Made by a program: the position numbers and the translations under genes
Part shown: positions 38,695 through 54,927 of the stretch, in pieces
Numbering within the stretch: position 1 is the stretch's first letter
Layout of the letters: every line of letters starts with the position of its first letter
NCBI GenBank assembly: GCA_017450205.1
Contig: JAFSVF010000007.1
Coordinates: 44,060-108,059 of the forward strand
Reading direction: 5' to 3'
DNA: 64,000 nt
Origin: Bacilli bacterium
GTDB taxonomy: Bacteria; Bacillota_I; Bacilli_A; RF39; UBA660
Notes under the pieces: generated by a model
Database searches by the model: none
What the model was told of the DNA's origin: nothing
The model's input: the letters and a program-made list of their open reading frames with translations, nothing else

Positions 38695-40014
38695 ATGAAG
38701 AAGAATTTTAATAATGAATTATATTTTCAAAAACAAAAAGAAGGTCTTATTAAAAGCTTTGAAGGTGATTTTCAAAGATTTTACGTAGAAATTGGTGGTA
38801 AAACACTTGGTGATTTTCATTCAAATAGAGTTTTAAATGGATATGATCCTGATATTAAATATAAAATTATAAAAGATATAGAAATTGGTTTTGAAATTAT
38901 TGTTTGTATTAGTGCGATATCTATTATCAAAAGAAAAAAGAAAAAAGATACTAAAAAATTATATACTGATGAAGTATTAGAATTATTAGATAGATTAAAA
39001 AAAGATAAAATTAAATTTAATGTTGCTATAACTAGATATAGAGAAAATTTCCATGTAGATGGATTTATTGATAAATTAAAAGATATGAATTGTGGTGTTT
39101 ATCGTTTTTTTGAAGATACAAATTATCCTTATGATGTAGAGAGTGTTGTTTCAAAAAATGGACTTGGATCTAATGATTATATTCCTTGTACTGAAAGAGT
39201 AGTTTATGTTATTGCTCCTGGTACAAATTCTGGTAAATTTGCAGTTTGTATTTCTCAAATTTATCATGAAAAGAAACAAAAAATATGTTCGACTTATAGA
39301 AAATTTGAAACTTTCTTAATTCCTGATTATCCAATTAATCATCCTGTTAACTTAGCTTGTTCAATGGCGATGTGTGATGTTAGAGGGGATGATACAATTG
39401 ATTCAGATTATTTAAAAAAGAGAGGAATGCTTATTTGTATTGATTCTCGAGATGCTGAATCCTTTAAAATATTAAATAGAATAATTCCAAAAGAAGAAAA
39501 AAGAACAACTGTTTATGAATATTTCATTAATAATACTAGTGCCGGAATTATTGATGAAGAACTTGCTATTAAACATGCGAAAAAAGAAATTGTTAGAAGA
39601 TATAAAGAATATATAAAAGCATATAATGGTAATAAAGTAAGTCAAATTGAATTTGATGAAGCTTCTAGAATTTATAATTTGATTGATAAAAATATTATTC
39701 TTAGTAGAAATGAAATGCATGTTTTATTGAAAAACTTTATTGACCTATGGGGATTTGATTGTCAAAGTAATGTTTGTATGGAAGAGATGGGTGAGTTAAT
39801 TCAAGCCATTTGTAAATATAAAAGAGAAGACAATGATGAGAGATATATTCCAAATATTTTAGAAGAAATTGCTGATGTTCATAATATGATTATTCAACTT
39901 GAGGAGTATTTTGGTTATGAAGAAATAAGAAAAATCAGAGAAAGAAAAATATTTAGAGCTCAAAAGTATTTAATGGATGAAATAGAGGAAGGTTTAATAG
40001 GTGATAAGAAATGA
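38695..40014 (+). CDS. DUF1846/UPF0371-family protein (tentative, from recalled family pattern)
   Basis: FYVEIGGKTLGDFHSNRVLNGYDPD, VYVIAPGTNSGKF...YRKFETFLIPDYPINHPVNLA and AKKEIVRRYKEY resemble my recollection of UPF0371 (not checkable here). First gene of the overlapping operon. Confidence 0.5.
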   Translation: MKKNFNNELYFQKQKEGLIKSFEGDFQRFYVEIGGKTLGDFHSNRVLNGYDPDIKYKIIKDIEIGFEIIVCISAISIIKRKKKKDTKKLYTDEVLELLDRLKKDKIKFNVAITRYRENFHVDGFIDKLKDMNCGVYRFFEDTNYPYDVESVVSKNGLGSNDYIPCTERVVYVIAPGTNSGKFAVCISQIYHEKKQKICSTYRKFETFLIPDYPINHPVNLACSMAMCDVRGDDTIDSDYLKKRGMLICIDSRDAESFKILNRIIPKEEKRTTVYEYFINNTSAGIIDEELAIKHAKKEIVRRYKEYIKAYNGNKVSQIEFDEASRIYNLIDKNIILSRNEMHVLLKNFIDLWGFDCQSNVCMEEMGELIQAICKYKREDNDERYIPNILEEIADVHNMIIQLEEYFGYEEIRKIRERKIFRAQKYLMDEIEEGLIGDKK

Positions 40015-40457
40015 ATATATTTTTAGCATCTCCTTTTTCTCAATTTTGTGAAGGAGATTCAGATATAATTGTAGAAAATAGATGGTTTTTTGAAAGATTA
40101 ATTAAGTTTTTTAAAAAAAATAAATTTGATTATTTTTGTTCTCAAGAAAGAGAAAATTGGGGAGAAAATTATGTGAGTCCCGAAGAAAGTATTATATGTG
40201 ATGTTAATGGAATTAAGGATTGTGATTTATTTGTTGCAATTCCTGGTAATCCTATTTCAGGTGGAGTACATGTAGAGATTGGATGGGCAAGCGCATATAA
40301 TAAAAAAATGTTAGTATTTTTAGATAAGAATATTGAATATAGTCCTATGATTTTAGGATTAAAAGAATTAACTGATTGTACTTTTATTTATTATGATGAT
40401 TTATTAACTGATGAAACTGTTGATTTAATTATAAAATCAATTAAGGAGGTAATTTAA
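40011..40457 (+). CDS. nucleoside 2-deoxyribosyltransferase-fold protein (NDT/MilB-BlsM-like)
   Basis: IFLASPFS N-terminus and GGVHVEIGWASAYNKKMLVFL with a candidate catalytic Glu. Confidence 0.6.
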   Translation: MNIFLASPFSQFCEGDSDIIVENRWFFERLIKFFKKNKFDYFCSQERENWGENYVSPEESIICDVNGIKDCDLFVAIPGNPISGGVHVEIGWASAYNKKMLVFLDKNIEYSPMILGLKELTDCTFIYYDDLLTDETVDLIIKSIKEVI

Positions 40458-40458: not shown

Positions 40459-41463
40459 ATGTATCAAAAATTATTTCCTGAAATGTTAAAATTTGATAAT
40501 AAATTTCCTTTATATTATTGGATTTCACTTTCTAATAAATGTAATGCTAATTGTAAATTTTGTGATATTCACGAGAAAGAAGATATTAATACTAAAGTAG
40601 ATGTTTTTAAATTATTGGATAATATTAAAAATATTGGTGGAAAATATGTTCAATTTACCGGAGGTGGAGAACCTTTCGCAAATCCTGAAATCTTTGATTA
40701 TTTAGAATATGCTACCAAATTAGGTTTAAATATTGTTTTTATAACTAATGGATTTTTTCTTACAGAATCAATTGTAAAAAGATTTAAAAATTACAATATT
40801 AGAGCTATTTTTGTTTCAATAGATAGTCATTTAGCAAAAGTGCATAATGAGACTAGAAGTGTTAATAAACTATTTGAAAGAGCTACTGCTGGTATAAATA
40901 ATATAAAGCATTTATATCCAAATATAAAAATAATAATTAATCATGTTTTAAATGATTCAAATATTGATGATTTAGATAAATTTATTGCGTTAAAGGATGA
41001 AATTAAATACGATTATTTAAATCCTATTATTGTAAAGGAATGTCCTGAGTTTTATTTTACAGATGATCAGATAGATGATTATAAAAATAAAACTAACTTA
41101 TTATTAGAATTGGCTAAAAATCATAATGTTGAATTTTTATATGATGATATAAATTATTTTGTTGATTCTAAATATTTAAACGATGGTTCTGATTTAAGAA
41201 AAAATGATGTTCCTTGTAATGCTTTAAATTACGCTTCTTTTATAGATTGTGTAAGTGGAAATGTTTATCCATGTGATTGCAGTGTACATAGAGATTATGA
41301 CTATTATTGTTTTGGAAATGTTTTAGCTGATAATTTAGAAAAAATATATAGTAATGATAAATGTAAACAATTAAGAAAGGAATTAAAATGTGCGAGTAAG
41401 TGTAAGTCAAAATGTGATTATGCTAATGTTCATTTTAATTTACTAGTTAATGAAAAAAAATAG
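40459..41463 (+). CDS. radical SAM enzyme with C-terminal SPASM-like Cys-rich domain
   Basis: CNANCKFC (CxxxCxxC) motif. C-terminal cysteines CNALNYASFIDC...CDC...C...CKQLRKELKCASKCKSKC. Confidence 0.85.
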   Translation: MYQKLFPEMLKFDNKFPLYYWISLSNKCNANCKFCDIHEKEDINTKVDVFKLLDNIKNIGGKYVQFTGGGEPFANPEIFDYLEYATKLGLNIVFITNGFFLTESIVKRFKNYNIRAIFVSIDSHLAKVHNETRSVNKLFERATAGINNIKHLYPNIKIIINHVLNDSNIDDLDKFIALKDEIKYDYLNPIIVKECPEFYFTDDQIDDYKNKTNLLLELAKNHNVEFLYDDINYFVDSKYLNDGSDLRKNDVPCNALNYASFIDCVSGNVYPCDCSVHRDYDYYCFGNVLADNLEKIYSNDKCKQLRKELKCASKCKSKCDYANVHFNLLVNEKK

Positions 41464-42541
41464 TATTATTCTTTTAGCGGAAGATTTTGGGTTTGGTCCA
41501 GTTACCACATTAATTGAAATAGCTAAAGAGATTAAAAGAAGAGATAAAGATATTGAATTGATATTTATTGGTCCTAAGTTTTGTATTAATAAAATAAAAA
41601 GTGAAGGATTATGTGATAAATATGTTGATATTCGTTATATGCCAGAAGAAATTGAAAAAAACATAGATCTTTTTAAAAATGCTAATAAGATCTTAGCTGT
41701 TGAGACAACTGATATTCTTATTTATTTAATTAATAATTATGATTTAAAGAATATTTATTTAGTAGATAATTTATTTTGGATGTGGGATTTTTTAGAAGAA
41801 GAATTAAAAAAATTAAAAAGATATTATATTTCCGATGTTATATCGTGTGATGAAAACATCGAAAGAATTGGACAAGGATTTAATAATTTATATAAAGTTG
41901 GAATGTTAAGACATAACTATAATAAAGATATTAAAACTGATAATAATTTGATGATTTCATTAGGCGGAGCAAAATCTTATATGTTTAATAGTGATTTAAT
42001 ATATAAGTTCTATTTAAATGTTATTAATCATATTTTAAGTAATGCTAAAGCTAAGGAATTTAAAACTATTTATATTACTGGTGGTTCTGAACTAATAGAT
42101 TATTTAAAAGATAATTTAATTGTTTTAGATAATGTTATTTTAAACACTTATAATCATGATGAATATTTAGATAAATTACATTCTTGTCGTTATGCGATTA
42201 TGTCACCTGGGCTAGGTAATTTTAATGAAATTATTCTATCTAATATTAATACAATGTTTTTATTACCAATAAATTATAGTCAATATATTCAAAGACTAAA
42301 ATTTAAAAAGTATTATGATTATTTTGATTATCAAATTAATAATAAAGAGAGTGCAATTGAAGAATATTTAGAAGAATCAATTGGAGTTAATAAAGTAATT
42401 GATAATCTTAAAAAATATGATTTTAGTAGTTTTGATGCAGAAATAGAATCATTCTTTAACAAAAATGATGTAAATAAAAAAATAGACAAGGATAAATTTG
42501 ATACGAATGGAATTTGTGAAATAGTTGATGATTTATTATAG
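41450..42541 (+). CDS. hypothetical Rossmann-like protein, possibly GT-B glycosyltransferase-like
   Basis: 363 aa. Weak resemblance to GT28/MurG-like C-terminal features (GGSE...SPGLGNFNE). Confidence 0.3.
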   Translation: MKKNSIILLAEDFGFGPVTTLIEIAKEIKRRDKDIELIFIGPKFCINKIKSEGLCDKYVDIRYMPEEIEKNIDLFKNANKILAVETTDILIYLINNYDLKNIYLVDNLFWMWDFLEEELKKLKRYYISDVISCDENIERIGQGFNNLYKVGMLRHNYNKDIKTDNNLMISLGGAKSYMFNSDLIYKFYLNVINHILSNAKAKEFKTIYITGGSELIDYLKDNLIVLDNVILNTYNHDEYLDKLHSCRYAIMSPGLGNFNEIILSNINTMFLLPINYSQYIQRLKFKKYYDYFDYQINNKESAIEEYLEESIGVNKVIDNLKKYDFSSFDAEIESFFNKNDVNKKIDKDKFDTNGICEIVDDLL

Positions 42542-42549
42542 GAGTTAAT

Positions 42550-43716
42550 ATGAAAAAGATTTGTTTTGATCCTTTTTATGGTTTAAATTATATTGGTTTT
42601 AGAGAAAAGCTTAGAGTAAATAAGATTCTTAAGAATAAAAGCTTATTTAGATATGATGGTGTAAACATGCTTTATGAGTCTGATAAAGTAGAAGAAAGCC
42701 TTAAGAACATGTTTAATGAAGATGCATTACTTGTAAATAATGGAACAAGTGCACTAAAACTTTGCTTACTAGCCAATGGAATTGGTGAAGGTGATGAAGT
42801 AATAGTTCCTTGCTTATCATTTATTGCTACAGCTGCTTCTTGTTTATCTGTTGGAGCTATTCCTGTTTTTGCAGACATTGATGAGTCATTTTCTATTGAT
42901 CCTAATTCAATAGTTGAAAGAATTACAAAAAAAACTAAAGCTGTAGTGGTTGTTCACTATCAAGGATATTCATGTGATATGGATAAAATACTAGAAATAT
43001 GCAGAAAATATAATTTAGCTTTAATTGAAGATTGTGCTCAAGCTTTTGGTAGTAAGTATAATAATAAATTAATTGGTACATTTGGAAATAGTTCTGCTTT
43101 TAGTTTTCAAGCTTGCAAAGTTATAACTTGTGGAGAAGGTGGAGCTGTTATTTCTAAAGTTAATATGGATTATATTAATAGATATGCTGATAATGGTGGT
43201 TATAGAGAAAAAGACATGATGCCACTATGGAATAAAAGTTTTACAAGTTTTGGTGAAAATTTCAAAATAACAGATTATCAAAGTGCGTTATTAAGCATTC
43301 AATTAACGAGATTAGATAAAATAATTAATCATCAAAAATTAATATTTAATGCATTAACTGAAGGATTAAATAAATATAATCTTAGAAAGATTAATAAAAG
43401 TTCTGATATTATTCCTATGTCATTATGTGTTACTTTTAAAACTAAAATAGAATGCGATAAGTTTATTGATTATATGAATGACAATGGTATTGAATTTTCG
43501 AAAAGAATAACTAATTTTTTACCCAAATATAATACATTTGAAAAAGGTTTATCCCCTTATAAAAATAATTTTCCTTATAAGAATTATAAGGTTCAAATTT
43601 GTTTAAAAAGTTTAAATCTTTTGAATAGAAGTGCTTGGTTAGTTTTGAATTCAAAATTAAGTAAAAAAGAGATAAATTATATTAAAAATAAAATGGTAAG
43701 TTATTATGAAAAGTAA
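42550..43716 (+). CDS. DegT/DnrJ/EryC1/StrS-family PLP-dependent sugar aminotransferase
   Basis: GDEVIVPCLSFIATA...PVFADID segment and the SFQACKVITCGEGG catalytic Lys motif. Confidence 0.9.
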   Translation: MKKICFDPFYGLNYIGFREKLRVNKILKNKSLFRYDGVNMLYESDKVEESLKNMFNEDALLVNNGTSALKLCLLANGIGEGDEVIVPCLSFIATAASCLSVGAIPVFADIDESFSIDPNSIVERITKKTKAVVVVHYQGYSCDMDKILEICRKYNLALIEDCAQAFGSKYNNKLIGTFGNSSAFSFQACKVITCGEGGAVISKVNMDYINRYADNGGYREKDMMPLWNKSFTSFGENFKITDYQSALLSIQLTRLDKIINHQKLIFNALTEGLNKYNLRKINKSSDIIPMSLCVTFKTKIECDKFIDYMNDNGIEFSKRITNFLPKYNTFEKGLSPYKNNFPYKNYKVQICLKSLNLLNRSAWLVLNSKLSKKEINYIKNKMVSYYEK

Positions 43717-44518
43717 TTTTACAAATGATAAATTGTATAGAGATTCACTATATTTTAGATTTACAACTAATAAGATTAAGTCATCTAAGAATTTAGATAT
43801 AGTTAAATATTTTGGTAAGAATATTTGTTTTCAATATTTTGATAGTGCAATAGATGATGAAGATATATCTTTTTTAAAAAATATAAATAAATCTTCAAAT
43901 ATTCAATTTAGATACATTAATATGGATTCTAATTTATATAAGGTATTAAACATTAATTTTATTATTGATATTACAGATAAATGGAAAGCACCTATCCTAG
44001 AATTAAAGAAAAATGAAGTTGATAATTATGTTAATTCAAAATCATATAATTTTAGAAGAATGATTAAGAAGAATGATAATTATTTAAAAGAATTAAAATT
44101 TAAAAAAGGAAATACCTTTGATTTATGGAAGAATATTTTATATATAGATCAAAATAGTTGGAAGAGTGAAGAAGAAAGTGATATGTTTAATCTTTCTTAT
44201 GAACATATTACTTTGTTATCACAAATTAAGAATTCTGATATTGAAGTTGCTTATAAAAATGGCGTTCCAGTTGGTTATTCATTATTAATTTATTATAGCG
44301 GTATATATTATGCTGCTAAATGGGGAGCAACTGAAGAAGGAAGAAAATTAAATGCTGGAATAATTTGTTTATTTAATCAAATAAAAAGGTTATCTAAGAA
44401 GAAAGACTTATATATAGATTTATGGGGAAGGAATAATAAGATTTATGATAGAATTGCTACAAGTTTTATTGATAGATGTTATTTAAGGATTAGTAAAAAT
44501 GGAAGTAAAAAGAATTAA
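43706..44518 (+). CDS. hypothetical protein, possibly FemAB/BioF2-like GNAT-fold transferase
   Basis: 270 aa. Weak similarity to Acetyltransf_6-type domains. Coupled within the operon. Confidence 0.35.
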   Translation: MKSNFTNDKLYRDSLYFRFTTNKIKSSKNLDIVKYFGKNICFQYFDSAIDDEDISFLKNINKSSNIQFRYINMDSNLYKVLNINFIIDITDKWKAPILELKKNEVDNYVNSKSYNFRRMIKKNDNYLKELKFKKGNTFDLWKNILYIDQNSWKSEEESDMFNLSYEHITLLSQIKNSDIEVAYKNGVPVGYSLLIYYSGIYYAAKWGATEEGRKLNAGIICLFNQIKRLSKKKDLYIDLWGRNNKIYDRIATSFIDRCYLRISKNGSKKN

Positions 44519-45461
44519 ACTCAAAAGTTTAAAAAATATCAATGAATTAGTTGATAATTCTTATAATGGAACATCTTTTTCATATGATTTCTTTTTGAAA
44601 CTTAAAAATGTTGAATATGTTTTATGTGTTTATGATGAAGATAAATTAGTATCTTTTATGCCATTATTTGAAGATAATGGTGATTTGAATCAATCTACCA
44701 TGTATATTCCTTATGGTGGTCCTGTAATTCTATATAATTTTCCTTCTTATAGAAAAAATATTATATATACCAGAAATATTTTAAATGTTATATGTTTGTA
44801 TTTAAAGAATAATTATAAGAATGTATGTTTATCATTAGATCCATTATTAACTGATATTATTTCTTTTGTAAAAAATGGTTTTATTCCTGAAGTTAGATAT
44901 ACTTATAAGATTGATCTAAACGATAATCTTGATATGATTTATTCTAATTTTGGTAGAGATAGAAAGAAACAAATTAAGCTTTGTAAGAATTATAAAGTGA
45001 TTTTTGATGATAAGTGTTCACTTTTTGATTTAGAAAAGGCTCTTATTTGGGAATATAACTATAGTAATGATATAAGTGTAGATTTTACCAAAAAGTATTT
45101 AAGTGAAGCTATCAAAAATAATAATGGTAAAATATTTTTAGCTTCTGATGGAGAAAAAATATTAGGTGGCGTTGCGATAGTTTGGGATAATAAAAATGCA
45201 TATATTATGTATTCATATTATGATAAAACAACAACTACAGTTATTCCTTTCTTATATTATGAGATTATTAAATATTTAAAAGATCATAATATATGTGAAA
45301 ATTTAGATTTTGAAGGATCAGTATTTAAAGAAATAGAAGAATGGAATCTTTCATTTGGATCTAAGCAAGTTTTATATTTTAATTTTTATTATGGAGAAAA
45401 TAGAGAAGAATTATTTAATGACTTGTACGATTATGGTGAAAAAAATGACAAATATGTATAA
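44499..45461 (+). CDS. FemAB/BioF2-like (GNAT-fold, possibly aminoacyl-tRNA-dependent) transferase
   Basis: C-terminal segment ...IVWDNKNAYIMYSYYD...IPFLYYEIIKYLKDHNICENLDFEGS resembles FemX/BioF2-like cores. Confidence 0.45.
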   Translation: MEVKRIKLKSLKNINELVDNSYNGTSFSYDFFLKLKNVEYVLCVYDEDKLVSFMPLFEDNGDLNQSTMYIPYGGPVILYNFPSYRKNIIYTRNILNVICLYLKNNYKNVCLSLDPLLTDIISFVKNGFIPEVRYTYKIDLNDNLDMIYSNFGRDRKKQIKLCKNYKVIFDDKCSLFDLEKALIWEYNYSNDISVDFTKKYLSEAIKNNNGKIFLASDGEKILGGVAIVWDNKNAYIMYSYYDKTTTTVIPFLYYEIIKYLKDHNICENLDFEGSVFKEIEEWNLSFGSKQVLYFNFYYGENREELFNDLYDYGEKNDKYV

Positions 45462-46320
45462 ATATTATTCTAACAGTGGTACTGAATCTTTTGATGTTAT
45501 TTTTAAATCCGATTTTTTCAAAAATGGTGATGAAGTAATTGTACCTGTTTCATTATGTGAATGTGTAATTAATTCTATTATAAAGAATTCATTAGTTCCT
45601 GTTTTTGTAGATATTGATAAAAATTTTTTGATAAAAAAAGAAGACATTAAAAAGAAAATTACCAATAAAACAAGGGCAATCATTTTTGTTGAACAATATG
45701 GTTTTGATATTAATAATGTTTGTACTTATAAGAATAAGAAAAATGAAAAAATTATAAATATATTGGATTCTTGTCAAAATATCATTAAAAATAATAATTC
45801 TGATTATGATTTTATTGTTTATTCCTTTAATAAGAATAAACCTATAAGTATTGGTAAATATTCATTATTTTATTCAAGTAAAAAAATAAATTTTGAGTAT
45901 AAAATTAGTCTTAAATTAAGGTTTATTATTAATTTTAAAAGATTATTATTTTTATTTAAATATTTAAAAAGAAGACATATTTATAATTTTATAAAAAAGA
46001 ATTTGCTTATACATGGGTATTTTATTAGTCATAGTAACTCTTCATTACATAGAATAGTATTTATTATGAAAATCACAAAAAAAGGTTTTATTAAATTAGA
46101 TGATAAATTATATGAATTTTTAGATAAGAATAATTTTAATTGTGTTCAAACTACAATTGAAGTTTCACCATTTGAAAGATTAAAAATTAAAGACGAGTTT
46201 AAACAATTTAATGATTATAGATATAAAGCATTGTATTTTAGACCATCATTCAAAAAAAGTGAATATTTAAAAGTTATTAAATACTTGAATGATATATGGG
46301 GTGATTTAAATGAAAATTGA
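45445..46320 (+). CDS. divergent N-terminally truncated DegT-like protein
   Basis: GDEVIVPVSLCECVINSI...PVFVDID...TRAIIFVEQYG and YSFNKNKPISIG mirror DegT motifs, but the protein is about 80 aa shorter. The ATG at 45445 overlaps the upstream stop. Confidence 0.4.
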   Translation: MTNMYKYYSNSGTESFDVIFKSDFFKNGDEVIVPVSLCECVINSIIKNSLVPVFVDIDKNFLIKKEDIKKKITNKTRAIIFVEQYGFDINNVCTYKNKKNEKIINILDSCQNIIKNNNSDYDFIVYSFNKNKPISIGKYSLFYSSKKINFEYKISLKLRFIINFKRLLFLFKYLKRRHIYNFIKKNLLIHGYFISHSNSSLHRIVFIMKITKKGFIKLDDKLYEFLDKNNFNCVQTTIEVSPFERLKIKDEFKQFNDYRYKALYFRPSFKKSEYLKVIKYLNDIWGDLNEN

Positions 46321-47773
46321 TTATGTACATAAAGAATTAATTTCTAGAAAACCATATTTATTAGAAGATAATTTTTGTCCAAATGTAGGTTTATTTGAAT
46401 ATGGAAAATCAGAAAACGTTGATAAAGTTTTATATGGAGCAAATGTTTATAGATATGATATTTATAACTATAGAGATGATGAAGATAGGATTAAGAACCT
46501 TGGTGGTGGTGATCCTATTCAATTTAAGACGTATAAATACATAAATAAAGATATTAATTCTTATTTAAAGAAAAATAAATTAAATGATTATCCTCATACT
46601 TCAGGTGATGAAGAAGTAAAAAATAAACTAATTGATTATCTTAAAAGTATTGGTATAAGTGATGTTAATGAAGAAGAACTTCTTATAACTGCTTCTACTA
46701 CTCATGGTTATTCTTTAATTTTAAAATCTATTATTAGGCCGCATGATGTTGTAATAATACCAACACCAACTTATGGTTTATTTGTTTATGAACCTGAAAA
46801 ACTTGGCGGAAGAGTAGAGTTTATTGAACTTCATGAAGATAAGAATTGGAAATTAGATTTAAAAGAGTTTGAAGATTTAATAATTAAAATTAATAAAGAT
46901 TTAAAGAATAAATATAAAGATTTAGGATATACTCCAAGAGTAGTTTCTATTTATCATCAAAATCCTAATAATCCTTTAGGAATTACTTATTCCAAAAAGG
47001 ATAAAAAGTATTTAAAAGATTTTTTAAAAATTTGTGAAAAATATAAATTATTGGTTATTGATGATTTAGTTTATAGAGATTCAGTATACGATTTAGATGA
47101 TATATCTATACCACTTGCTTCTTTTAAAGAATATAAAGATTGTGTTATTTCTTTATTTGGTATTTCAAAATCATTTTCCCTTGCGGCATTAAGAACTGGT
47201 TTTATACACGGAAATAAATATATTATTCAAGATATCAGAGATAGTTTATTTATTCAAATGGATTCTATTTCAATGTTAAGTCAAATAGCTTTATCTAGCG
47301 TATTTAATAATGATACAAAGAGAGTTGAATATAGAGAAAAATTTTTAAGTAAAATTAAGCAAAAATATTTAGATAACCTAGATATTATTAAATTTTTTGT
47401 CAATGGTGAGACTGATATTTCATCTAGAAATAAAAGAAGAATCAAGAGATTATTAAAAGGTAATTATAATAAGTATAAAGATGGAAATAAAGATGTAAGT
47501 ATTTATCATAATCTTATTCCTAAATCTGGATTCTTTATATTATTAGATTTTTCTAAATTTAAAGGGAAAAAGATTAATAGGAAACTTATTAAAAATGATA
47601 TAGATTTCTTAATCGAGATTTATAAGTGTTCTAAAATTAAATTTCTTCCTGGTAATTCATTTGCATGGAATAATACGGATGATATTATTGGAAGAATTAC
47701 ATTTTCTAAGCCTTTTGAAACATTGTTATTTGATTTTAAATCTTTAATGGATGTTTTAAATGGTTTTAAATAG
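46310..47773 (+). CDS. class I/II PLP-dependent aminotransferase-like protein
   Basis: NPNNPLG segment and the SKSFSLAALRTG motif containing the PLP-binding Lys. Confidence 0.7.
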   Translation: MKIDYVHKELISRKPYLLEDNFCPNVGLFEYGKSENVDKVLYGANVYRYDIYNYRDDEDRIKNLGGGDPIQFKTYKYINKDINSYLKKNKLNDYPHTSGDEEVKNKLIDYLKSIGISDVNEEELLITASTTHGYSLILKSIIRPHDVVIIPTPTYGLFVYEPEKLGGRVEFIELHEDKNWKLDLKEFEDLIIKINKDLKNKYKDLGYTPRVVSIYHQNPNNPLGITYSKKDKKYLKDFLKICEKYKLLVIDDLVYRDSVYDLDDISIPLASFKEYKDCVISLFGISKSFSLAALRTGFIHGNKYIIQDIRDSLFIQMDSISMLSQIALSSVFNNDTKRVEYREKFLSKIKQKYLDNLDIIKFFVNGETDISSRNKRRIKRLLKGNYNKYKDGNKDVSIYHNLIPKSGFFILLDFSKFKGKKINRKLIKNDIDFLIEIYKCSKIKFLPGNSFAWNNTDDIIGRITFSKPFETLLFDFKSLMDVLNGFK

Positions 47774-47782
47774 GGTGTTTAT

Positions 47783-48643
47783 ATGAATAAGTATATTGAT
47801 TTACATTGTCATTCAACTTTTAGTGATGGTGATTATAGTGTTGATGAATTAGTTCAAATGGCTAAGAATAATAATGTTGGATTTTTTAGTATAACTGATC
47901 ATGATAAAGTAGATGCTTGTTCTCATAAAGTAAATGATGAGGATATAACTATGGTTAATGGAATAGAATTATCTACTTATTATAAATATAATAATGAAAT
48001 TTGTTATATTCATTTATTGGGTTATGATTTTAATCCATATAATAAGAAATTACTTAATGAACTTAAAAGAATGAGAGAGATATTAATTGATGATAGTACT
48101 AGATTTGTTAATTGTTTATTGAGTAAAAAAATACCATTAGCTCCTAATGTTATTGAACAAATAGATGTTTCTAGTTATAGACTTATTCAGGATCAATTAA
48201 AAATTGTTATGTTAAATAATGGTTATGATGAGAAATATTATAAATTTATTAGTTCTATTATTAAAGATGATTATCCATTATATGAAGATTATGAAATTGA
48301 ATTAGGTAAAGCAATTGATATTATATTAGAAGCTGATGGTATTCCTGTTTTAGCACATCCTAATAGAATTCATATAAGCGAAGAGAAAAAAGATTCTTTA
48401 ATTAAAGAGTTAAAAAATAAAGGTCTTATGGGAATTGAAAGCAATTATTCTTATTATAGTGATTATGAATTTGATTTATATTCTAAAATAGCAAAAAAAT
48501 ATTCTTTACTTGAATCAGTTGGTTCTGATTTCCACTTTTATACTAAAGAAAATAATGTTAATATAGGAAGTGGGATAAATTCTAATCTTCTAAAAGAAGA
48601 TTGCTCACTTAAGAGAGTATTGATAGAGAGGCCATTAAGATGA
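47783..48643 (+). CDS. PHP-family metal-dependent phosphoesterase
   Basis: IDLHCHSTFSDGDYSVDELV...ITDHD motif, typical of PHP/histidinol-phosphatase-like enzymes. Confidence 0.8.
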   Translation: MNKYIDLHCHSTFSDGDYSVDELVQMAKNNNVGFFSITDHDKVDACSHKVNDEDITMVNGIELSTYYKYNNEICYIHLLGYDFNPYNKKLLNELKRMREILIDDSTRFVNCLLSKKIPLAPNVIEQIDVSSYRLIQDQLKIVMLNNGYDEKYYKFISSIIKDDYPLYEDYEIELGKAIDIILEADGIPVLAHPNRIHISEEKKDSLIKELKNKGLMGIESNYSYYSDYEFDLYSKIAKKYSLLESVGSDFHFYTKENNVNIGSGINSNLLKEDCSLKRVLIERPLR

Positions 48644-49404
48644 AAAGCAAGATAGATGAAATAATGAAGAACGCAACAATTAATGATATAAGTATTGGTT
48701 GTTCAGGAGATAGTGTTAAAGAAATAGTTAAAAACGATAAAACTTATTATTTGAAAAAGGCTAAAGGGAATAAACTTGATAAAGAATATTATATGTTTAA
48801 TTATTTAAGTGAATTACATTTAGCTCCAAAAATAGTTGAGTTTAAATTTGATGGTGAATATAGTTATTTATTTACTGAAAAACTATCTGGTGATATGATT
48901 TGTTGTGATGAAATTTTTGATGATATGAATCATGTTATTGAATTAGCAGCAAAGGCAATCAACATTTTACAATCAATTGATGTTGATACTTGTCCTTTTT
49001 ATAATAATTTAAATATTAAATTAAGAACTGCTAAATATAATATTGAACATGGATTGGTAAAGACTGAAGATATGTCTGAAGAGAGCCAAAAAAGATTTGG
49101 AAGTGTAGAAAGGGCATATGAGTATTTAGTTAATAATAAAATTGTAGAAGAAAAATTAGTGTTTTCTCATGGAGATTTAAGTATTCCAAATATATTTTAT
49201 GAAAATGAAGAAATTACAGGATTTGTTGATTTAGGAGATTCTGGAATTGCTGATATGTGGTTTGATATAGCAATTTTAGTTAAATCTTTAAGAAAAAATT
49301 ATGAAACTGATGAAGCAGAGAAGTATTTATTTAAACTATTAGGAATTGAACCAAAATATGATATTATAGATTATTATATTATTTTAACAGATGTATTTTT
49401 ATAA
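48640..49404 (+). CDS. aminoglycoside 3'-phosphotransferase-family kinase (APH(3')-like)
   Basis: VFSHGDLSIPNIFYENEEITGFVDLGDSGIADMWFDIA aligns along its length with APH(3')-III-type catalytic and Mg-binding motifs. Gly-rich loop GCSGDSV...YYLKK. Confidence 0.85.
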   Translation: MKSKIDEIMKNATINDISIGCSGDSVKEIVKNDKTYYLKKAKGNKLDKEYYMFNYLSELHLAPKIVEFKFDGEYSYLFTEKLSGDMICCDEIFDDMNHVIELAAKAINILQSIDVDTCPFYNNLNIKLRTAKYNIEHGLVKTEDMSEESQKRFGSVERAYEYLVNNKIVEEKLVFSHGDLSIPNIFYENEEITGFVDLGDSGIADMWFDIAILVKSLRKNYETDEAEKYLFKLLGIEPKYDIIDYYIILTDVFL

Positions 49405-49422
49405 AAAACAGGGGGTGATATT

Positions 49423-51066
49423 ATGCAAATATTAAATGTAAATGAGTTAGGAATGAATTTTGGGTTCGGAACATTATTTAGTAATTTATCTTTTACTTTA
49501 AATGAAGGAGAATCTATTTCAATTGTTGGTCCAAATGGATGTGGAAAATCCACATTATTAAAGATTATTGCTGGTTTAGAAAAACAAGATTGTGGTCAAG
49601 TAAGTATTAAAAAAGGTGCTAAAGTAGCTTATTTAGATCAAACTGGTGCTTCAAAGGATGATTCAAGAAAAGTATATGATGTTTTAAAAGAATCTTTTGG
49701 TAGTTTATATGAATTAGAAAAAGATATTAAAGAGTTAGAAAAAACTATGGAAGCACAACCAGACAATTCTAAAATAATTGAAAAGTATTGTGTTATGATT
49801 GATAAGTTTTCTCAATTAGGTGGATATGAGATGGATTCTACTATTAATACAGTATTATCTGGATTAAGAATTGATTCTAAAGTTCTAGAACAATCATTTA
49901 ATAATTTAAGTGGTGGAGAAAAAACTTTAATTCAATTATGTAAATGTTTAATTACTAAACCGGATTTATTGTTATTAGATGAACCAACAAACCATTTAGA
50001 TATAGAAAGAATAGAATGGTTAGAAAAATATATTAAGAATTTTAAAGGTGCTTGTGTAATTGTTTCACATGATAGATATTTCTTAGATAAAATGTGTAAT
50101 AAGATTTTAGATTTAGAAGATAAAGAACCTGAAATTTTTAATACTAATTATACTGGTTATTTAGAAGAAAAAGAAAATAGATTTGAAAAACAATTAGCTG
50201 AATATAAAGATCAACAATTAGTTATTAAAAGATTAGAAACTGAAATGAAAATGTTTGCGGAACGTGGTATGCAAACTAACAGTTCTACCTTGACAGCAAG
50301 AGCTCATGCGCTTCAAACTAGAATTAATAAAATTAAAGAAAATGCTGTTGCTAGACCAGTTAAAAGAAAAAAATCAAATATTGAATTTAATGAAGAAGCT
50401 AAATCTAGTAAAAAGATAATTCAAGTTAATGATTTAACTGTTATGTTACCAAATGCTGATCTTTTATTAGATGATATTAGTTTTGATATTAAAGCTGGTG
50501 AAAGAATTGCTTTAATTGGTTCAAATGGATGTGGAAAATCAACAATTGTTAAATCAATTATGGGTACTAATGACTTAGAGTATGATGGTGAAATAATAAT
50601 TGGACCTAGTGTTAAAATCGGATACATTCCTCAAATTATTCAATTTAGTGATGAGAAGAAGTCATTACTAGAATACTTTAGAAATGCTACTGGTTTACCT
50701 GAACAAAGGATTAGACAAATACTTGTTGGTTTCCAATTCTATAATGATTCAATTATGAAGAGAGTAGGAAATCTTTCTGGTGGTGAAAGAATGAAATTAA
50801 AATTAGCTGAGTTGTTACAAAATAAAGTTAATACATTAATTTTAGATGAACCAACAAACCATATAGATATTGATACTAAAGAGGTATTTGAAAGCGCTTT
50901 AGATGATTACAATGGAACAATGATTTTTGTATCACATGATAGATATTTTATTAATAAATTTGCGGATAAGATTTATGAAATTGATAATGGTAAATTAGAT
51001 ATTTATTATGGCGATTATGATTATTATGCTGAAAAGAAAGCTCAACAATTAGTAAGAAAAAGATAA
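49423..51066 (+). CDS. ABC-F family ATPase (tandem ABC domains with inter-domain linker; ARE/ribosome-protection-like)
   Basis: Two Walker A motifs (GPNGCGKST, GSNGCGKST), two LSGGE signatures and no TM domain. Confidence 0.9.
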   Translation: MQILNVNELGMNFGFGTLFSNLSFTLNEGESISIVGPNGCGKSTLLKIIAGLEKQDCGQVSIKKGAKVAYLDQTGASKDDSRKVYDVLKESFGSLYELEKDIKELEKTMEAQPDNSKIIEKYCVMIDKFSQLGGYEMDSTINTVLSGLRIDSKVLEQSFNNLSGGEKTLIQLCKCLITKPDLLLLDEPTNHLDIERIEWLEKYIKNFKGACVIVSHDRYFLDKMCNKILDLEDKEPEIFNTNYTGYLEEKENRFEKQLAEYKDQQLVIKRLETEMKMFAERGMQTNSSTLTARAHALQTRINKIKENAVARPVKRKKSNIEFNEEAKSSKKIIQVNDLTVMLPNADLLLDDISFDIKAGERIALIGSNGCGKSTIVKSIMGTNDLEYDGEIIIGPSVKIGYIPQIIQFSDEKKSLLEYFRNATGLPEQRIRQILVGFQFYNDSIMKRVGNLSGGERMKLKLAELLQNKVNTLILDEPTNHIDIDTKEVFESALDDYNGTMIFVSHDRYFINKFADKIYEIDNGKLDIYYGDYDYYAEKKAQQLVRKR

Positions 51067-51070
51067 TTTA

Positions 51071-51097
51071 AAGATATCATTTGATATCTTTTTTTTG
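51071..51097 (+). terminator. rho-independent terminator ending the operon
   Basis: aagatatca / tgatatctt stem followed by T6. Confidence 0.5.
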
Positions 51098-51300
51098 ACA
51101 CTTTTTATATTTATTATTTTATATGTGTAAGTAATATAAGAGTTAGTAATTATGAATTGTTTTTTTATAAAAAATAATGAAGAAGAGTGAATTATATGAA
51201 TGATATGAATTAATAAAAGATCAATAAAGAAATATATGTTAAATATTTATTTTTCAATAAATATATGATATAAATGATGTAGAGGAAGCATTATCAATTA

Positions 51301-51486
51301 ATGTTATCTCGGTTTGGGTTAACGCCTAGTCAATGACTAGGTGTTTTTTATTAACCAAAACCCCTGAAAGAAAAGACTCCTTCTATATGATCAATAAAAG
51401 AATAATTATAAGTAAAATAAAGATAATCTTATCTCTTCTGCTCATAACTAAACACCTCACATTCACTTAGAATGCCGAGATAACAT
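51301..51486. repeat. nested inverted-repeat structured element
   Basis: Outer IR aatgttatctcgg (51301-13) / ccgagataacat (51475-86). Inner IR ggtttgggttaa / ttaaccaaaacc encloses the hairpin cctagtcaatgactagg followed by T6. Confidence 0.4.
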
Positions 51487-51780
51487 CAAGATAAATAATC
51501 CTCTAATATTATATATACACGGTCGAAGTCCATTTTTCTCATTTTTATATTTAAAACTTTAAAAATATTTGTAAATTTCAAAAAAATGCTATTTCCAAAA
51601 CTAAATTAAATTAATAGTAAATAAATTTAATATCTTTTTTTATGATTTTATTATAAAATTAGTTTAGGAGGCTAACTATTAAAAGTCAATAATTTTTAAT
51701 AGTAGTTATAAATTGGAAGAGAATCCCACGCCAAAAAGATTTCACTTTCGTGAAATTTTTGAAAAAAATAATTATTTTAG

Positions 51781-52947
51781 TTATTTCAATAAAGACGGAT
51801 CAAAAAGGATATTTTGAGTTTCGAGTTTGTAAATAACTCTAAGTAGTTTTTTACAAACATGAGATAATGCAACACGATGATTTTTACCTTCTGAACGTTT
51901 CTTTAAGTAAAAATCATAAAAAGTCGGGTTATATTTAATAACAATATTTGCAATATTCATTAAAGAATATCTTAAATATCCAGAACCACGCTTAACCATT
52001 TTACCATTACATGAAATAGTACCTGATTGGTATATTCCAGGTTCTAAACCTGCAAATGATAATAATTTATCTGCATTTGAAAATTTATTAAAATCTCCAT
52101 ATTCAGATATGATTACAGCTGTGGTAAGTTCACCAATTCCTGGAATAGAAAGTGTTGGTGGATTTAGTTCTTTGACAATTGTAGAAATTTGTTTATCAAT
52201 TGAATTTATTTTTGAATCAATTTCGTTGTAAAGGCAAATAAGAGTTTGAAGTTCAATTTCAAATACTTCGTTTGATTCACCAATCGTATTTTTTGCAAGT
52301 TCTTTAAGTTTTGCAAATTTAGCATAAGTTAAGTGACATTTAGATAGTTTATTTGGTGTTTCAAAATCACGCATATTAGCCATTTTTTCAGCAGTACCAT
52401 ATTTATTAAGAAAATATAACGATGTAACTGAAAACTTATTATTAAAAAATGGTTTAAACTCAGGAAAAATAATATCTAATATATTAGTTAATTGAACCAT
52501 ATATTTAGATCTTTGTTTTACTAAAGATTCTCTTAGTCTTGAAAGTGACTTGATTGAATATTTATGATAAAATAGTTTTGAATTTGGGGTGTATGGAACT
52601 GACATAAGTTTTTGACAAATTATAATAGCATCAACTTTATCAGTTTTAGTTCTTCTTAAAGTTAATGATTTTTTAAATTCTTTAACTAATAAAGGATTAA
52701 ATTCCATAAAATTATAATTATTCTTTTCTAAGAATAATTTCAAATTCAAACCGTAATGTCCAGTGGCTTCGAGACCGATATGGACATTTTCATTATCATA
52801 GGATTTCAACAAGTCTAGAAATCGTTGGAATCCTTTTTTATTATTTTCAAATGATAAATTTTCTACAATGATTTCACCTGTATCTTTACAGATGAAACAA
52901 TCGTGTTTGTATTTTGATATATCTATTCCAACATATATCATATACAT
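51781..52947 (-). CDS. IS110-family transposase (DEDD RuvC-like N-terminus + C-terminal Tnp domain)
   Basis: N-terminal YVGIDISKYKHDCFI and conserved family architecture. 388 aa. Confidence 0.85.
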   Translation of the reverse strand: MYMIYVGIDISKYKHDCFICKDTGEIIVENLSFENNKKGFQRFLDLLKSYDNENVHIGLEATGHYGLNLKLFLEKNNYNFMEFNPLLVKEFKKSLTLRRTKTDKVDAIIICQKLMSVPYTPNSKLFYHKYSIKSLSRLRESLVKQRSKYMVQLTNILDIIFPEFKPFFNNKFSVTSLYFLNKYGTAEKMANMRDFETPNKLSKCHLTYAKFAKLKELAKNTIGESNEVFEIELQTLICLYNEIDSKINSIDKQISTIVKELNPPTLSIPGIGELTTAVIISEYGDFNKFSNADKLLSFAGLEPGIYQSGTISCNGKMVKRGSGYLRYSLMNIANIVIKYNPTFYDFYLKKRSEGKNHRVALSHVCKKLLRVIYKLETQNILFDPSLLK

Positions 52948-54831: not shown

Positions 54832-54927
54832 TAAAAAGGTACTTTTAAGTACCTTTTATTATGGCATATAAAAGTGGAATAATATGCAAAAACATGTTAT
54901 AATAATTGCATATTAGAGGTGGTTTAT

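Follow-up and report, generated by a model that had tools for sequence, protein, structure and literature searches.

Twelve genes on the + strand form an operon of 12.4 kb (about 38.7-51.1 kb) in the window, the whole 64,000-nucleotide stretch of DNA that was analysed. The operon opens with a gene for a DUF1846/UPF0371-family protein (g01, 38695..40014; Pfam PF08903, E 2e-73), for which the start of the metagenome gene call, 38695, was used rather than that of the ORF tool, 38683; its similarity to the PDB entries 7f00 and 3bh1 is confined to about the first 330 residues. Next come a BlsM/MilB-type CMP N-glycosidase (g02, 40011..40457), which matches PDB 4jen, a CMP N-glycosidase, at E 9e-26, BlsM (5vto) at 6e-23 and MilB (4jem) at 6e-22 and would supply free cytosine, and a BlsE-like radical SAM/SPASM enzyme (g03, 40459..41463; Pfam Radical_SAM and SPASM). 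They are followed by a putative glycosyltransferase with weak similarity to cytosylglucuronate synthase (g04, 41450..42541; TIGR04467, E 5e-7) and a DegT/DnrJ/EryC1 sugar aminotransferase (g05, 42550..43716; PF01041, E 7e-74), for which we infer a BlsH-like role. Two GNAT-fold proteins, both tentatively FemAB-like (Acetyltransf_6, PF13480), are encoded by g06 (43706..44518; 21.8 bits, slightly below the gathering score of 22) and g07 (44499..45461; 20.6 bits, sub-threshold); a PDB sequence search with g07 returned no match. A short DegT-like PLP-fold protein of ~300 aa (g08, 45418..46320, start taken from the metagenome gene call) shows family similarity only in its N-terminal part (PF01041, E 2e-14, residues 40-167), and g09 (46310..47773) encodes a 487-aa class I/II aminotransferase (PF00155, E 8e-30). 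Genes 10 and 11 encode a 286-aa PHP-family (TrpH/RNase AM-type) metal-dependent phosphoesterase (g10, 47783..48643), hereafter PHP, and a 254-aa APH(3')-like kinase (g11, 48640..49404), hereafter APH, from a divergent clade whose C-terminus is LL(T)ELFL. The last gene (g12, 49423..51066) encodes an ABC-F ATPase of the ribosomal-protection (ARE) type, with two ABC domains, an inter-domain linker and no transmembrane domain (Pfam ABC_tran x2 and ABC_tran_Xtn); its NCBIfam NF000355 score of 475 bits exceeds the curated cutoff of 380. An intrinsic-terminator-like hairpin on the same strand at 51321..51345, the sole such hairpin in 38300-51900, likely marks the operon end, although one site against 1.2 expected from shuffles is weak evidence alone. 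Scans with Rfam and for promoters and terminators found nothing regulatory inside the operon, and promoter-like sites were fewer there than shuffles of this AT-rich DNA would give. Pfam and NCBIfam annotation found no exporter gene among the twelve.

The initial annotation of this locus had drawn an analogy with streptomycin producers. On the evidence of its predicted gene products, the operon is a cytosine-nucleoside (blasticidin-type) cluster and not an aminoglycoside cluster, because its glycosidase is of the BlsM/MilB type and BlsE is the sole PDB relative of its radical SAM enzyme. The only PDB matches of the latter below 1e-5 were the BlsE structures 7vob/7voc (5e-14). On TIGR04466, however, it scored 71.5 bits against an equivalog cutoff of 400, and several other radical SAM models scored equally well or better. 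The g04 product likewise reached 29 bits on TIGR04467, far below the cutoff of 300, and a PDB sequence search with it returned no match. Its gene nevertheless holds a constant position, always between the radical SAM and DegT genes, and this position beside the radical SAM gene is suggestive of a CGA synthase (BlsD/MilC-type). The cluster thus resembles those of blasticidin S, mildiomycin and gougerotin in grouping a BlsM/MilB-type glycosidase, a BlsE-like radical SAM enzyme, a weak CGA-synthase match and a DegT aminotransferase. It differs from them in that the window's matches all fall below the equivalog cutoffs and in its tailoring genes (DUF1846, the two GNAT-fold proteins, g08 and g09). 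Since the ABC-F protein scores above its curated cutoff, the target would be the ribosome. The product may accordingly be a blasticidin/gougerotin-like, ribosome-targeting cytosine amino-hexuronate peptidyl nucleoside, a proposal that we hold as evenly balanced, this grade applying jointly to the whole of the preferred reading developed below.

The PHP and APH genes are adjacent and share an ATGA overlap, as the initial annotation had reported: the PHP stop codon TGA occupies 48641-48643 and the APH start codon ATG 48640-48642. A Shine-Dalgarno-like AGAGAGG lies inside the 3' end of the PHP gene, about 8 nt upstream of the APH start. Translational coupling of the two genes is not obligatory, because a related gene order, architecture 3 below, places them at opposite ends of the operon.

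The assignment of PHP to its family is far above chance (Pfam PF02811, E 2.5e-8), with PDB matches to RNase AM (E 4e-17) and Cv1693 (E 1e-10). Its AF2 model (pLDDT 95.1) comprises a PHP barrel and an insertion domain, with Foldseek TM scores of 0.71-0.74 to 9etk and 2yb1. PHP shares this fold with insertion domain with the 3',5'-nucleoside bisphosphate phosphatase Cv1693 and RNase AM (TrpH/YciV, COG0613), together with the trinuclear site, of which all nine metal ligands (H7, H9, D14, H39, E64, H75, H191, D248 and H250, Cv1693 numbering) are kept in the cluster PHPs. In Cv1693, R99, R102 and R134, together with H136, form a positively charged 5'-phosphate cavity, and the RNase AM equivalents of the three arginines are R107, R110 and R141 (PMC9410882). 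In contrast to the metal site, this cavity is not conserved in the window protein. No cluster PHP has R102 or H136, and the architecture found in the window lacks R99 and R134 as well; in the window protein the positions of R99, R102 and R134 carry L, D and D (or Q, depending on the alignment). R102 was absent from 16 of 16 cluster PHPs examined and present in 10 of 10 generic or structural homologues; these ten TrpH-type sequences kept all four residues. All cluster PHPs also have a one-residue deletion, and their clade has a specific C-terminal motif. The window PHP fell below both NCBIfam equivalog cutoffs, with 122.4 against 400 for NF041577 and 100.3 against 375 for NF047791. The cluster PHPs are thus predicted to have a remodelled substrate pocket in which the 5'-phosphate cavity of the pAp phosphatase/RNase AM type is not conserved.

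PHP also appears from its sequence to be a cytoplasmic enzyme. Its N-terminus reads MNKYIDLHCHS, in which the HxH motif begins at residue 8 and supplies the metal ligands 8 and 10, and the AF2 model takes on a globular fold from residue 4 onwards; neither shows a signal peptide or an N-terminal extension. The representative P0056 has an extension of just 10 residues, which is hydrophilic. Streptomycin producers combine an intracellular APH(6) with a secreted phosphatase, StrK, and apramycin (AprU/AprZ) and amicoumacin (AmiN/AmiO) are handled likewise; these phosphatases are secreted and of the alkaline-phosphatase type. The apramycin-cluster kinase AprU has literature support. The window operon is like the streptomycin model in that a kinase encoded within the biosynthetic cluster would mask the product in the cell and a phosphatase would unmask it. 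It is unlike that model in that PHP lacks a signal peptide and comes from a different superfamily, and in that the cluster is not of the aminoglycoside type. Because PHP has its HxH at residue 8 and is globular from residue 4, without a signal peptide, the picture of a secreted phosphatase is inapplicable here. Of the phosphorylation/dephosphorylation self-protection pair that the initial annotation envisaged, the masking logic fits best and the pair is conserved with the cluster, while the streptomycin-style export phosphatase falls away.

The APH assignment is similarly far above chance (Pfam PF01636, E 7e-16; PDB APH(3')-IIIa, E 4e-36). The AF2 model (pLDDT 93.4) has the eukaryotic-protein-kinase-like APH fold, with a Foldseek TM score of 0.88 to 1j7l. 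The motifs HGDLSIPN and GFVDLGDSGIADMWFDIA, quoted earlier as evidence of close tracking of APH(3')-III, are both present in the translation. That likeness holds for the catalytic core and not for the substrate-contact positions, identity to APH(3')-IIIa being about 31-32% over the full length. The two proteins share fold and length, the catalytic residues K44, E60, H188, D190, N195 and the Mg-binding D208 (IIIa numbering) are conserved, and the Brenner motif HxDxxxxN is intact. At the level of residues, both PHP and APH are thus predicted to be catalytically intact. Residue D261, which is reportedly among the aminoglycoside contacts of APH(3') enzymes, is replaced by T or M in the APH clade (T in the window protein), and E157 is absent or M and E160 variable. 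The clade has one extra C-terminal residue, so that F264 is no longer C-terminal, while E262 (as D or E) and F264 themselves are kept. In APH(3')-IIIa, the aminoglycoside is contacted by E157 and E160 of the binding loop, by E262 of helix alpha-C and by the C-terminal F264 (PMC3691515). The canonical ...DELF end was found in 83 of 151 sequences compared (the 150 nearest representatives and the IIIa reference). The clade stands apart, with one 50%-identity representative at 368 bits and the next match at 173 bits. These features suggest that APH belongs to a small, separate APH(3') branch with an altered C-terminal substrate site. An exact-protein look-up of APH gave matches only in contigs from the same organism. 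On the NCBIfam APH(3') model NF033068, APH scored 193.9 bits, just below the curated cutoff of 205, and the sister sequence P0198 scored 228.5; since the cutoff separates the two, the family boundary runs through this group. Positions 211 and 230 are charge-swapped relative to IIIa. The change of E230 to K/R and of R211 to D was considered as a sign of an anionic group on the substrate and downgraded, because 211 D/E and 230 R co-vary; the changes may be an internal salt-bridge swap rather than substrate contacts.

Related clusters occur in metagenomes in three gene orders. Architecture 1 has the same 12-gene order as the window, with PHP-APH-ABC-F at the 3' end and 41-74% protein identity, and was found at eight loci (L011, L014, L015, L021, L024, L037, L038 and L042) in different chromosomal sites; in L024, g08 and g07 are a single fused ORF of 605 aa. 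In architecture 2 (L027/28 and L033), PHP and APH form a two-gene unit between a divergent ABC-F gene and a convergent biosynthetic operon. In architecture 3 (L041, L045, L050 and L058), PHP opens the gene order and APH closes it. Both g06 and g07 are kept in all architectures and g01 in architectures 1 and 2 (identity 44-62%). Architectures 2 and 3 lack g09, and L018/L019 have just a remnant of it, which suggests that it is an optional tailoring gene. Both PHP and APH were present at every locus with core biosynthetic genes and sufficient flank. Their co-occurrence with the cluster spans the three architectures and more than a dozen divergent metagenomic lineages, with cluster-associated sequences diverging down to about 35-40% identity. 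The cluster type of PHP always appeared together with the cluster or remnants of it (one sequence cluster, P0056, accounts by itself for 243 indexed blocks of the metagenome collection). Variant APHs were also found without the cluster, at L017, L029/30 and L047, with neighbours of the nucleotide-sanitising or detoxification type; L043 and L044 repeat the L029 island and were not counted as independent. The reading of L029 as a blasticidin-type resistance island stays suggestive, its cytidine-deaminase-fold gene being a generic homologue (71 bits against a cutoff of 74). At L018 the cluster is gone and PHP carries a nonsense codon, and APH is intact. The same metagenomes are rich in canonical APH(3') genes, and none of the 11 recovered loci with the canonical APH signature carried cluster genes. 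Collectively, these comparisons support the PHP-APH pair as an integral, conserved and specialised part of the biosynthetic operon.

An outgroup comes from a scan of genome contigs with g04, which recovered three loci. Two of these are Paenibacillus clusters that share only the common four-gene core; they carry non-homologous kinases, and one also has an EEP phosphoesterase. Because these core clusters have kinases of their own, phosphorylation appears to recur on this scaffold. Blasticidin self-protection is effected by a deaminase or an acetyltransferase. It is also achieved by leucylation (PMC5572114), as against the phosphorylation that we propose for the window operon.

We consider it an even call that the operon encodes a cytoplasmic cryptic phosphorylation and dephosphorylation of its own nucleoside, with the ABC-F protein guarding the target. 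The APH(3')-derived kinase would use ATP to phosphorylate a hydroxyl of the sugar (or another hydroxyl) on the cluster's nucleoside, whether intermediate or finished product. The phosphorylated compound would be inactive and retained in the producer cell, and later pathway enzymes would act on, or tolerate, the phospho-form. PHP, derived from a 3'-nucleotidase/RNase AM-type ancestor with a rebuilt 5'-phosphate pocket, would remove the phosphate from the mature molecule in a late deprotection, and the ABC-F protein would shield the ribosome from any active compound present. Self-protection would then be a benefit of the cryptic phosphorylation. In this scheme we infer which substrates are used, where the phosphate is placed, how the steps are ordered and that both enzymes act on the same phosphate.

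The closer analogy would then be the intracellular cryptic phosphorylation of nikkomycin/polyoxin and sinefungin. Sinefungin has the kinase SinF and the phosphatase SinD, and tRNA-dependent aminoacylation acts on its phospho-intermediate; the two candidate FemAB-like transferases of the window cluster can be set beside this amino-acid addition. Cryptic phosphorylation is also reported for nikkomycin, polyoxin and malayamycin (for nikkomycin and polyoxin according to secondary citations), and in these systems and in sinefungin the phosphate serves as a handle and prevents active compound from forming in the cell. They resemble the window operon, as predicted from its genes, in being nucleoside clusters that encode a kinase and an intracellular phosphatase. 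The enzyme families are different: for nikkomycin and polyoxin the kinase, NikN/PolQ2, is of the P-loop NTPase kind, in contrast to the APH(3')-derived kinase and PHP/TrpH-type phosphatase here. The scaffold there is a ribonucleoside and the host Streptomyces, whereas the window cluster points to a cytosine hexuronate in a low-GC Firmicute. APH-type self-resistance kinases are known from nucleoside clusters, for example Ard2 and Mur28. Ard2 is a phosphotransferase that inactivates the cluster's own ribosome-targeting nucleoside, A201A, and is paired there with the ABC-F protein Ard1. Like Ard2 and Hyg21 of hygromycin A, APH would be a self-resistance kinase in a ribosome-targeting nucleoside cluster, the scaffold and host being different; we know of no dedicated phosphatase partner described for those two.

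Several observations weigh against the cryptic-phosphorylation reading. A kinase and a phosphatase in one cytoplasm would run a futile cycle unless early and late forms are discriminated, which is assumed here. A homologous Metallophos phosphoesterase stands beside or near the stand-alone variant APHs in two non-producer lineages, and this does not fit a partner needed by producers only. Few genes of the cluster are as poorly conserved as PHP (32-51% identity against 41-66% for APH), and single nonsense codons interrupt it at two MAG loci, one of which, L011, otherwise has an intact cluster; PHP may be dispensable, or the nonsense codons may be assembly errors. The lack of an exporter gene in the operon, the separation of the two genes in architecture 3, the co-variation of positions 211 and 230, the retained E262 and F264 and the passing score of P0198 also appear to count against it.

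An unlikely but serious alternative splits the roles of the pair. APH would be a self-resistance kinase on the finished antibiotic, PHP would act on another phosphoester of the pathway, such as a precursor at the nucleotide level or a building block that bears a phosphate, and the phospho-antibiotic would be exported or reactivated by unrelated phosphatases. Architecture 3, with PHP heading the biosynthetic genes and APH after ABC-F, resembles a separation of biosynthetic and resistance placement; the two proteins evolve at different rates; and the ancestors of PHP act on nucleotides in a pathway that begins at CMP. Yet no cluster PHP retains an intact 5'-phosphate pocket for a nucleotide, and the PHP and APH genes, which overlap or adjoin each other in architectures 1 and 2, travel together there independently of the biosynthetic operon. 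In addition, we know of no CGA-type step in the blasticidin, mildiomycin or gougerotin pathways that requires a phosphatase.

Far less probable is a role of the phosphate as a leaving group. APH would then activate a sugar hydroxyl for elimination by one of the PLP-fold proteins g05, g08 or g09, giving a deoxy or unsaturated sugar, and PHP would merely proofread or recycle stalled phospho-intermediates. Sugars of the blasticidin type are indeed deoxygenated or unsaturated, and the operon holds three PLP-fold proteins, including the odd truncated DegT-like g08. There is also a precedent in an APH(3') homologue, GenP, which works in this way with the PLP enzymes GenB3/GenB4 in the 3',4'-dideoxygenation of gentamicin by phosphorylation and then elimination (PMC7941887). 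Against this reading, variant APHs persist at loci whose biosynthetic genes are missing or in decay (L017, L029, L047 and L018), by themselves or with no companion but PHP, which would be senseless for a purely biosynthetic kinase; the PHP-APH unit of architecture 2 is transcribed separately from the biosynthetic operon and adjoins ABC-F; and an eliminated phosphate would leave a conserved hydrolytic phosphatase unnecessary. For blasticidin, the corresponding chemistry is ascribed to BlsE and BlsH, and no kinase is known to take part. BlsE itself has been described (PMC3715490).

The alternative offered by the initial annotation, that APH is a bona fide kanamycin/neomycin-type resistance gene embedded in the operon, is similarly improbable. 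Its place there would be fortuitous, and PHP would be a TrpH/RNase AM-like housekeeping enzyme unconnected with it. The full-length APH(3') fold, the near-cutoff NCBIfam score with P0198 above it, the retained E262 and F264 and the commonness of canonical APH(3') genes in metagenomes of the same kinds all speak for it. The association of APH with PHP and the cluster through three architectures and deep divergence disfavours it, as do its separate clade, the loss of D261 and E157, the displacement of the C-terminal carboxylate by the extra residue, the absence of cluster genes at the canonical loci and the loss of the pAp phosphatase/RNase AM pocket in PHP, with its low equivalog scores. APH further differs from APH(3')-IIIa in being cluster-associated rather than mobile-element cargo. 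The argument that anaerobes need no aminoglycoside resistance was dropped, given the abundance of canonical APH(3') in these metagenomes. Two other roles were rejected: a HisC/HisK-like trio in which the aminotransferase g09, PHP and the kinase would process a phosphorylated amino-alcohol, since architectures 2 and 3 have PHP and APH without g09, and an MtnK-like salvage of radical SAM-derived 5'-deoxyadenosine, since the likeness of APH is to APH(3') in particular and extends along the whole protein.

We searched the literature for such clusters beyond the actinomycetes, for Paenibacillus clusters of the bagougeramine/gougerotin kind and for antibiotic clusters with a PHP-domain phosphatase, and found no prior description; the operon is in this respect previously undescribed, in uncultured low-GC Firmicutes. 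If the cryptic-phosphorylation reading is true, prodrug masking of this kind would extend to the cytosylglucuronate (blasticidin-type) class, and two new enzyme families would serve it: a branch of APH(3') with a nucleoside as substrate and a PHP/TrpH enzyme whose substrate is a natural product. The kinase C-terminus LL(T/M)EL(F/Y)+1 and the loss of R102 and H136 in PHP offer signatures for mining. We tentatively suggest, as a broader and less secure proposal, that a widespread family of blasticidin-like, ribosome-targeting cytosine peptidyl-nucleosides exists in uncultured low-GC spore-forming Firmicutes of gut-type metagenomes, made as phosphate-masked prodrugs by repurposed APH(3') and RNase AM/pAp-phosphatase folds, the stand-alone kinases of non-producers being resistance genes against such a compound. 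These Firmicutes would then hold a sizeable, uncharacterised family of ribosome-targeting antibiotic clusters, and the APH(3') resistance family would be linked to nucleoside-antibiotic immunity besides aminoglycosides. On the cryptic-phosphorylation reading, the annotation "aminoglycoside 3'-phosphotransferase" may mislabel kinases with another natural substrate, which would affect resistome surveys.

The initial annotation placed a PHP-family phosphoesterase beside an APH(3')-like kinase, and both open reading frames were recovered where it had put them, the phosphoesterase (PHP) at 47783-48643 (+, 286 aa) and the kinase (APH) at 48640-49404 (+, 254 aa). The ATGA overlap of the PHP stop with the APH start is present at 48640-48643, the motifs quoted for the kinase are found in its sequence, and a Shine-Dalgarno-like AGAGAGG lies inside the 3' end of the PHP gene. 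APH matches Pfam PF01636 and the APH(3')-IIIa structures (E 4e-36), and its AlphaFold model (pLDDT 93.4) aligns to 1j7l with a TM score of 0.88. PHP matches PF02811, RNase AM (E 4e-17) and Cv1693 (E 1e-10), and its model (pLDDT 95.1) gives TM scores of 0.71-0.74 to 9etk and 2yb1. The assignment to family is robust for each protein.

PHP and APH occupy positions 10 and 11 in an operon of 12 tightly packed + strand genes (~38.69-51.07 kb); the sole terminator-like hairpin in the operon region is at 51321-51345. Gene 1 (38683-40014) encodes a DUF1846/UPF0371 protein, a family for which we know of no function; it has 439-443 aa, compared to 496-507 aa in solved members, and the match is limited to the first ~330 residues. 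The best solved relatives of gene 2 (148 aa) are CMP N-glycosidases (4jen, 9e-26; BlsM, 5vto; MilB, 4jem), and gene 3 encodes a radical SAM/SPASM protein whose PDB relatives below 1e-5 are BlsE only. Gene 4 (363 aa) is a weak cytosylglucuronate-synthase match, gene 5 a DegT sugar aminotransferase, genes 6 and 7 two GNAT-fold proteins, tentatively FemAB-like, gene 8 a short DegT-like protein and gene 9 (487 aa) a class I/II aminotransferase. Gene 12 (49423-51066) encodes an ABC-F ATPase that scores 475 bits, passing the curated ribosomal-protection ABC-F cutoff of 380. Judged by its sequences, the gene set carries the signature of a predicted cytosine peptidyl-nucleoside pathway (cytosylglucuronate-derived, blasticidin/gougerotin-type) whose target would be the ribosome, and the pathway is predicted not to be of the aminoglycoside type. 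The single-gene matches to BlsD and BlsE fall below equivalog cutoffs.

The window DNA (~25% G+C) is chromosomal, with rpoC at its start and rpsB-tsf just upstream of the operon. The rpsB gene (36645-37601) encodes a ribosomal protein S2 of 318 aa in an unusual fusion with a C-terminal Rho_N domain (PF07498, E 2e-11). The window holds many hybrid histidine kinases; at least five hybrid histidine kinase/response-regulator genes lie upstream of rpsB, at 9769-20536 and 32779-36002, an unusual density. An IS110-family transposase (51781-52947, -; L001-L005) is found ~0.7 kb downstream of the operon, and a Fic-domain protein is encoded at 54919-55536.

All catalytic residues are kept in APH (K44, E60, H188, D190, N195 and D208, APH(3')-IIIa numbering). 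When 1.84 billion representatives were searched exhaustively, the whole cluster-type APH clade formed a single 50% cluster (368 bits), and the next match scored 173 bits. Among 151 sequences, comprising the 150 nearest representatives and the IIIa reference, the canonical ...LLDELF end occurs in 83, and the full variant signature (D/E at 211, T/M at 261 and one additional C-terminal residue) in only five. In APH(3')-IIIa, the aminoglycoside is contacted by two binding-loop residues, E157 and E160, and by two residues of helix alpha-C, E262 and F264 (PMC3691515). The window APH lacks E157 and has T in place of D261; it retains E262 and F264, although the latter no longer ends the protein. D261 is another of the defining residues of APH(3') enzymes. 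The window APH scores 193.9, slightly short of the NCBIfam APH(3') cutoff (205), and a stand-alone sister sequence scores 228.5, above the same cutoff. The substrate site appears remodelled, not abolished, and may still accept aminoglycosides. Positions 211 and 230 have exchanged charges in a co-varying manner, a change that may be structural.

The trinuclear metal site of PHP has nine ligands, every one of them invariant, and the enzyme is therefore predicted to be active. The 5'-phosphate cavity of RNase AM and Cv1693 is formed by R107, R110 and R141, corresponding to R99, R102 and R134 of Cv1693 (PMC9410882). R99, R102, R134 and H136 are kept in ten generic or structural TrpH-type sequences; in the cluster PHPs (16/16, from all three gene orders of the cluster), R102 and H136 are lost and a one-residue deletion is present. 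PHPs of architecture 1, the gene order of the window, have lost R99 and R134 too. Since the pocket is lost and the NCBIfam equivalog scores are far under their cutoffs, PHP does not qualify as an orthologue of pAp phosphatase or RNase AM; it would be a derived form with a new substrate. No signal peptide was found in the PHP sequence or AlphaFold model. PHP is among the least conserved cluster genes, and single in-frame nonsense codons interrupt it in two related loci: TAG at codon 141 in L011 (16311-17180), where the rest of the cluster is intact, and TAA at codon 206 in L018 (9038-9949), where L019, with 99.9% identical DNA, reads GAA. The adjoining APH is intact in both L011 and L018. These codons may reflect either genuine decay or a fault of assembly.

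Every related sequence comes from a metagenome or a MAG. Identical APH copies were confined to metagenome contigs of the window's own organism, and distant relatives show three cluster architectures. Architecture 1, with the 12 genes in the window's order, occurs in L011 (Bacillales bacterium UBA6331), L014, L015/16, L021, L024-26, L037, L038 and L042, at protein identities of 41-74%. Its chromosomal site varies by lineage (after tsf in the window, with gap and pgk on either side in L024, before mutS in L014), and the operon therefore behaves as an insertable island. Genes 7 and 8 are one 605-aa fused ORF in L024 (6747-8564) and are called separately in L025 and L026, which are near-identical to it; the single ORF reflects either natural fusion or frameshifting, and the fused call hints that the two proteins work together. 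Architecture 2 (L027/28 and L033) has a biosynthetic operon lacking gene 9 and, on the opposite strand, PHP-APH as a separate pair of genes; ABC-F is divergent from PHP. Architecture 3 starts with PHP, ends with ABC-F-APH (L041, L045, L050 and L058; partial views in L039, L051 and L053) and carries an additional methyltransferase, implying a methylated congener. The DUF1846/UPF0371 gene comes first in the operon of architectures 1 and 2; neither it nor gene 9 was seen within the fetched flank of architecture 3. In L045, the added SAM-dependent methyltransferase (6567-7292) lies between genes 7 and 8, and the CMP N-glycosidase-type (NDT), radical SAM (rSAM) and ABC-F genes are each split into two ORFs, so this assembly may be degraded.

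Both PHP and APH are present in every locus with core biosynthetic genes and enough flank, and co-occurrence with the cluster is therefore the conserved feature; only architectures 1 and 2 also show adjacency and translational coupling. Stability is lower for ABC-F, which shares 41-74% identity with its window counterpart, out of step with the other cluster genes, a pattern that suggests exchange of the ribosome-protection gene between clusters. This identity is 41% in L014 (10829-12478), otherwise the closest relative of the window cluster, 56% in L015 and 72-74% in L011, L021 and L024.

The PHP-APH pair is kept in decaying loci. L019 retains the counterparts of genes 6 and 7 (Fem1 and Fem2) in the order Fem1-Fem2-(gene 9 remnant)-PHP-APH; L031/32 have only Fem1, Fem2 and gene 8 of the biosynthetic genes, with divergent PHP and APH; and L018 has housekeeping genes, a frameshifted gene 9 remnant, the PHP interrupted by its single nonsense codon, and an intact APH. 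In the variant locus L020 (2135-2656 and 5627-6184), NUDIX and Ham1-like genes follow PHP-APH, with no ABC-F there, and a partial ORF upstream of PHP resembles, by eye, a DegT-type C-terminus. Variant APHs are also found without cluster and without PHP: in an integrase-bearing element in L017 (9240-12468); among NUDIX, methyltransferase, Metallophos, cytidine-deaminase-like, two GNAT and Ble-like genes in L029/30 (5442-11197; same island as L043/44); flanked by UDG and Fur in L047; and as a truncated copy near dNK-like, NUDIX and HAD genes in L064. The cytidine-deaminase-fold protein of L029/L030 has 249 aa, and the small neighbours of the stand-alone kinases in L029/L030 and L017 are of detoxification or nucleotide-sanitising type. 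L017 and L029 have homologous Metallophos genes (36% identity), and thus a second phosphoesterase type recurs near the variant kinase outside the cluster. Two Paenibacillus loci carry the four-gene NDT-rSAM-GT-DegT core only; PHP and APH are absent from both, and other kinases are found instead. These kinases are non-homologous in both loci: L012 (Paenibacillus periandrae, 5064-20433) has a P-loop CPT-like kinase at 12386-12907, and L013 (P. faecalis, 2840-20782) a PPDK_N/PEP-utilizers enzyme of 840 aa (12826-15348) together with an EEP-family phosphoesterase, NTP_transf_5 and two ABC exporters. The products of these two loci may be bagougeramine-like.

The most economical reading is that PHP and APH both act on the cluster's own nucleoside, and we give it about an even chance. 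APH would mask a nucleoside intermediate or product by phosphorylation, PHP would remove the mask from the mature compound within the cytoplasm, and ABC-F would protect the ribosome. APH(3') enzymes target a ring hydroxyl of an aminohexopyranose, and TrpH-type enzymes take the 3'-phosphate off a nucleoside with an anionic 5' group. A phospho-cytosyl-aminohexuronate would resemble both ancestral substrates, and masking would therefore be chemically natural given the ancestry of both enzymes. Sinefungin provides a precedent, with the kinase SinF, the phosphatase SinD and tRNA-dependent aminoacylation on the phospho-intermediate; cryptic phosphorylation is likewise part of the nikkomycin, polyoxin and malayamycin pathways. 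APH-type self-resistance kinases such as Ard2 and Mur28 are known from nucleoside clusters. The systems of StrK, AmiO, Ard1 and Hyg21 served as further comparisons.

The roles could instead be split, with PHP working on another phosphoester, which we consider unlikely. Activation of the substrate by APH for PLP-dependent elimination, as with GenP (PMC7941887), is very doubtful, and is weakened because the kinase persists where biosynthetic genes are absent and has a conserved hydrolytic partner. Least probable is a true aminoglycoside resistance gene beside an unrelated housekeeping PHP, against which stand the association of the two genes across three architectures, the separate APH clade and a PHP without the 5'-phosphate pocket. 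Masking and unmasking of the nucleoside has weak points of its own: early/late discrimination by kinase and phosphatase is assumed, PHP appears to be under relaxed constraint, no exporter is encoded in the operon, PHP and APH lie apart in architecture 3, and a homologous Metallophos phosphoesterase is found near stand-alone kinases in two lineages.

No description of this cluster family was found in the searchable literature, and we know of no phosphorylation in blasticidin-type pathways. The comparative asymmetry fits masking, with a kinase that would be useful for resistance alone and a phosphoesterase that would be tied to production. Kinase-based self-protection and cryptic phosphorylation are already known kinds; the novelty lies in the families from which the enzymes are drawn, in the class of pathway and in the cluster family.
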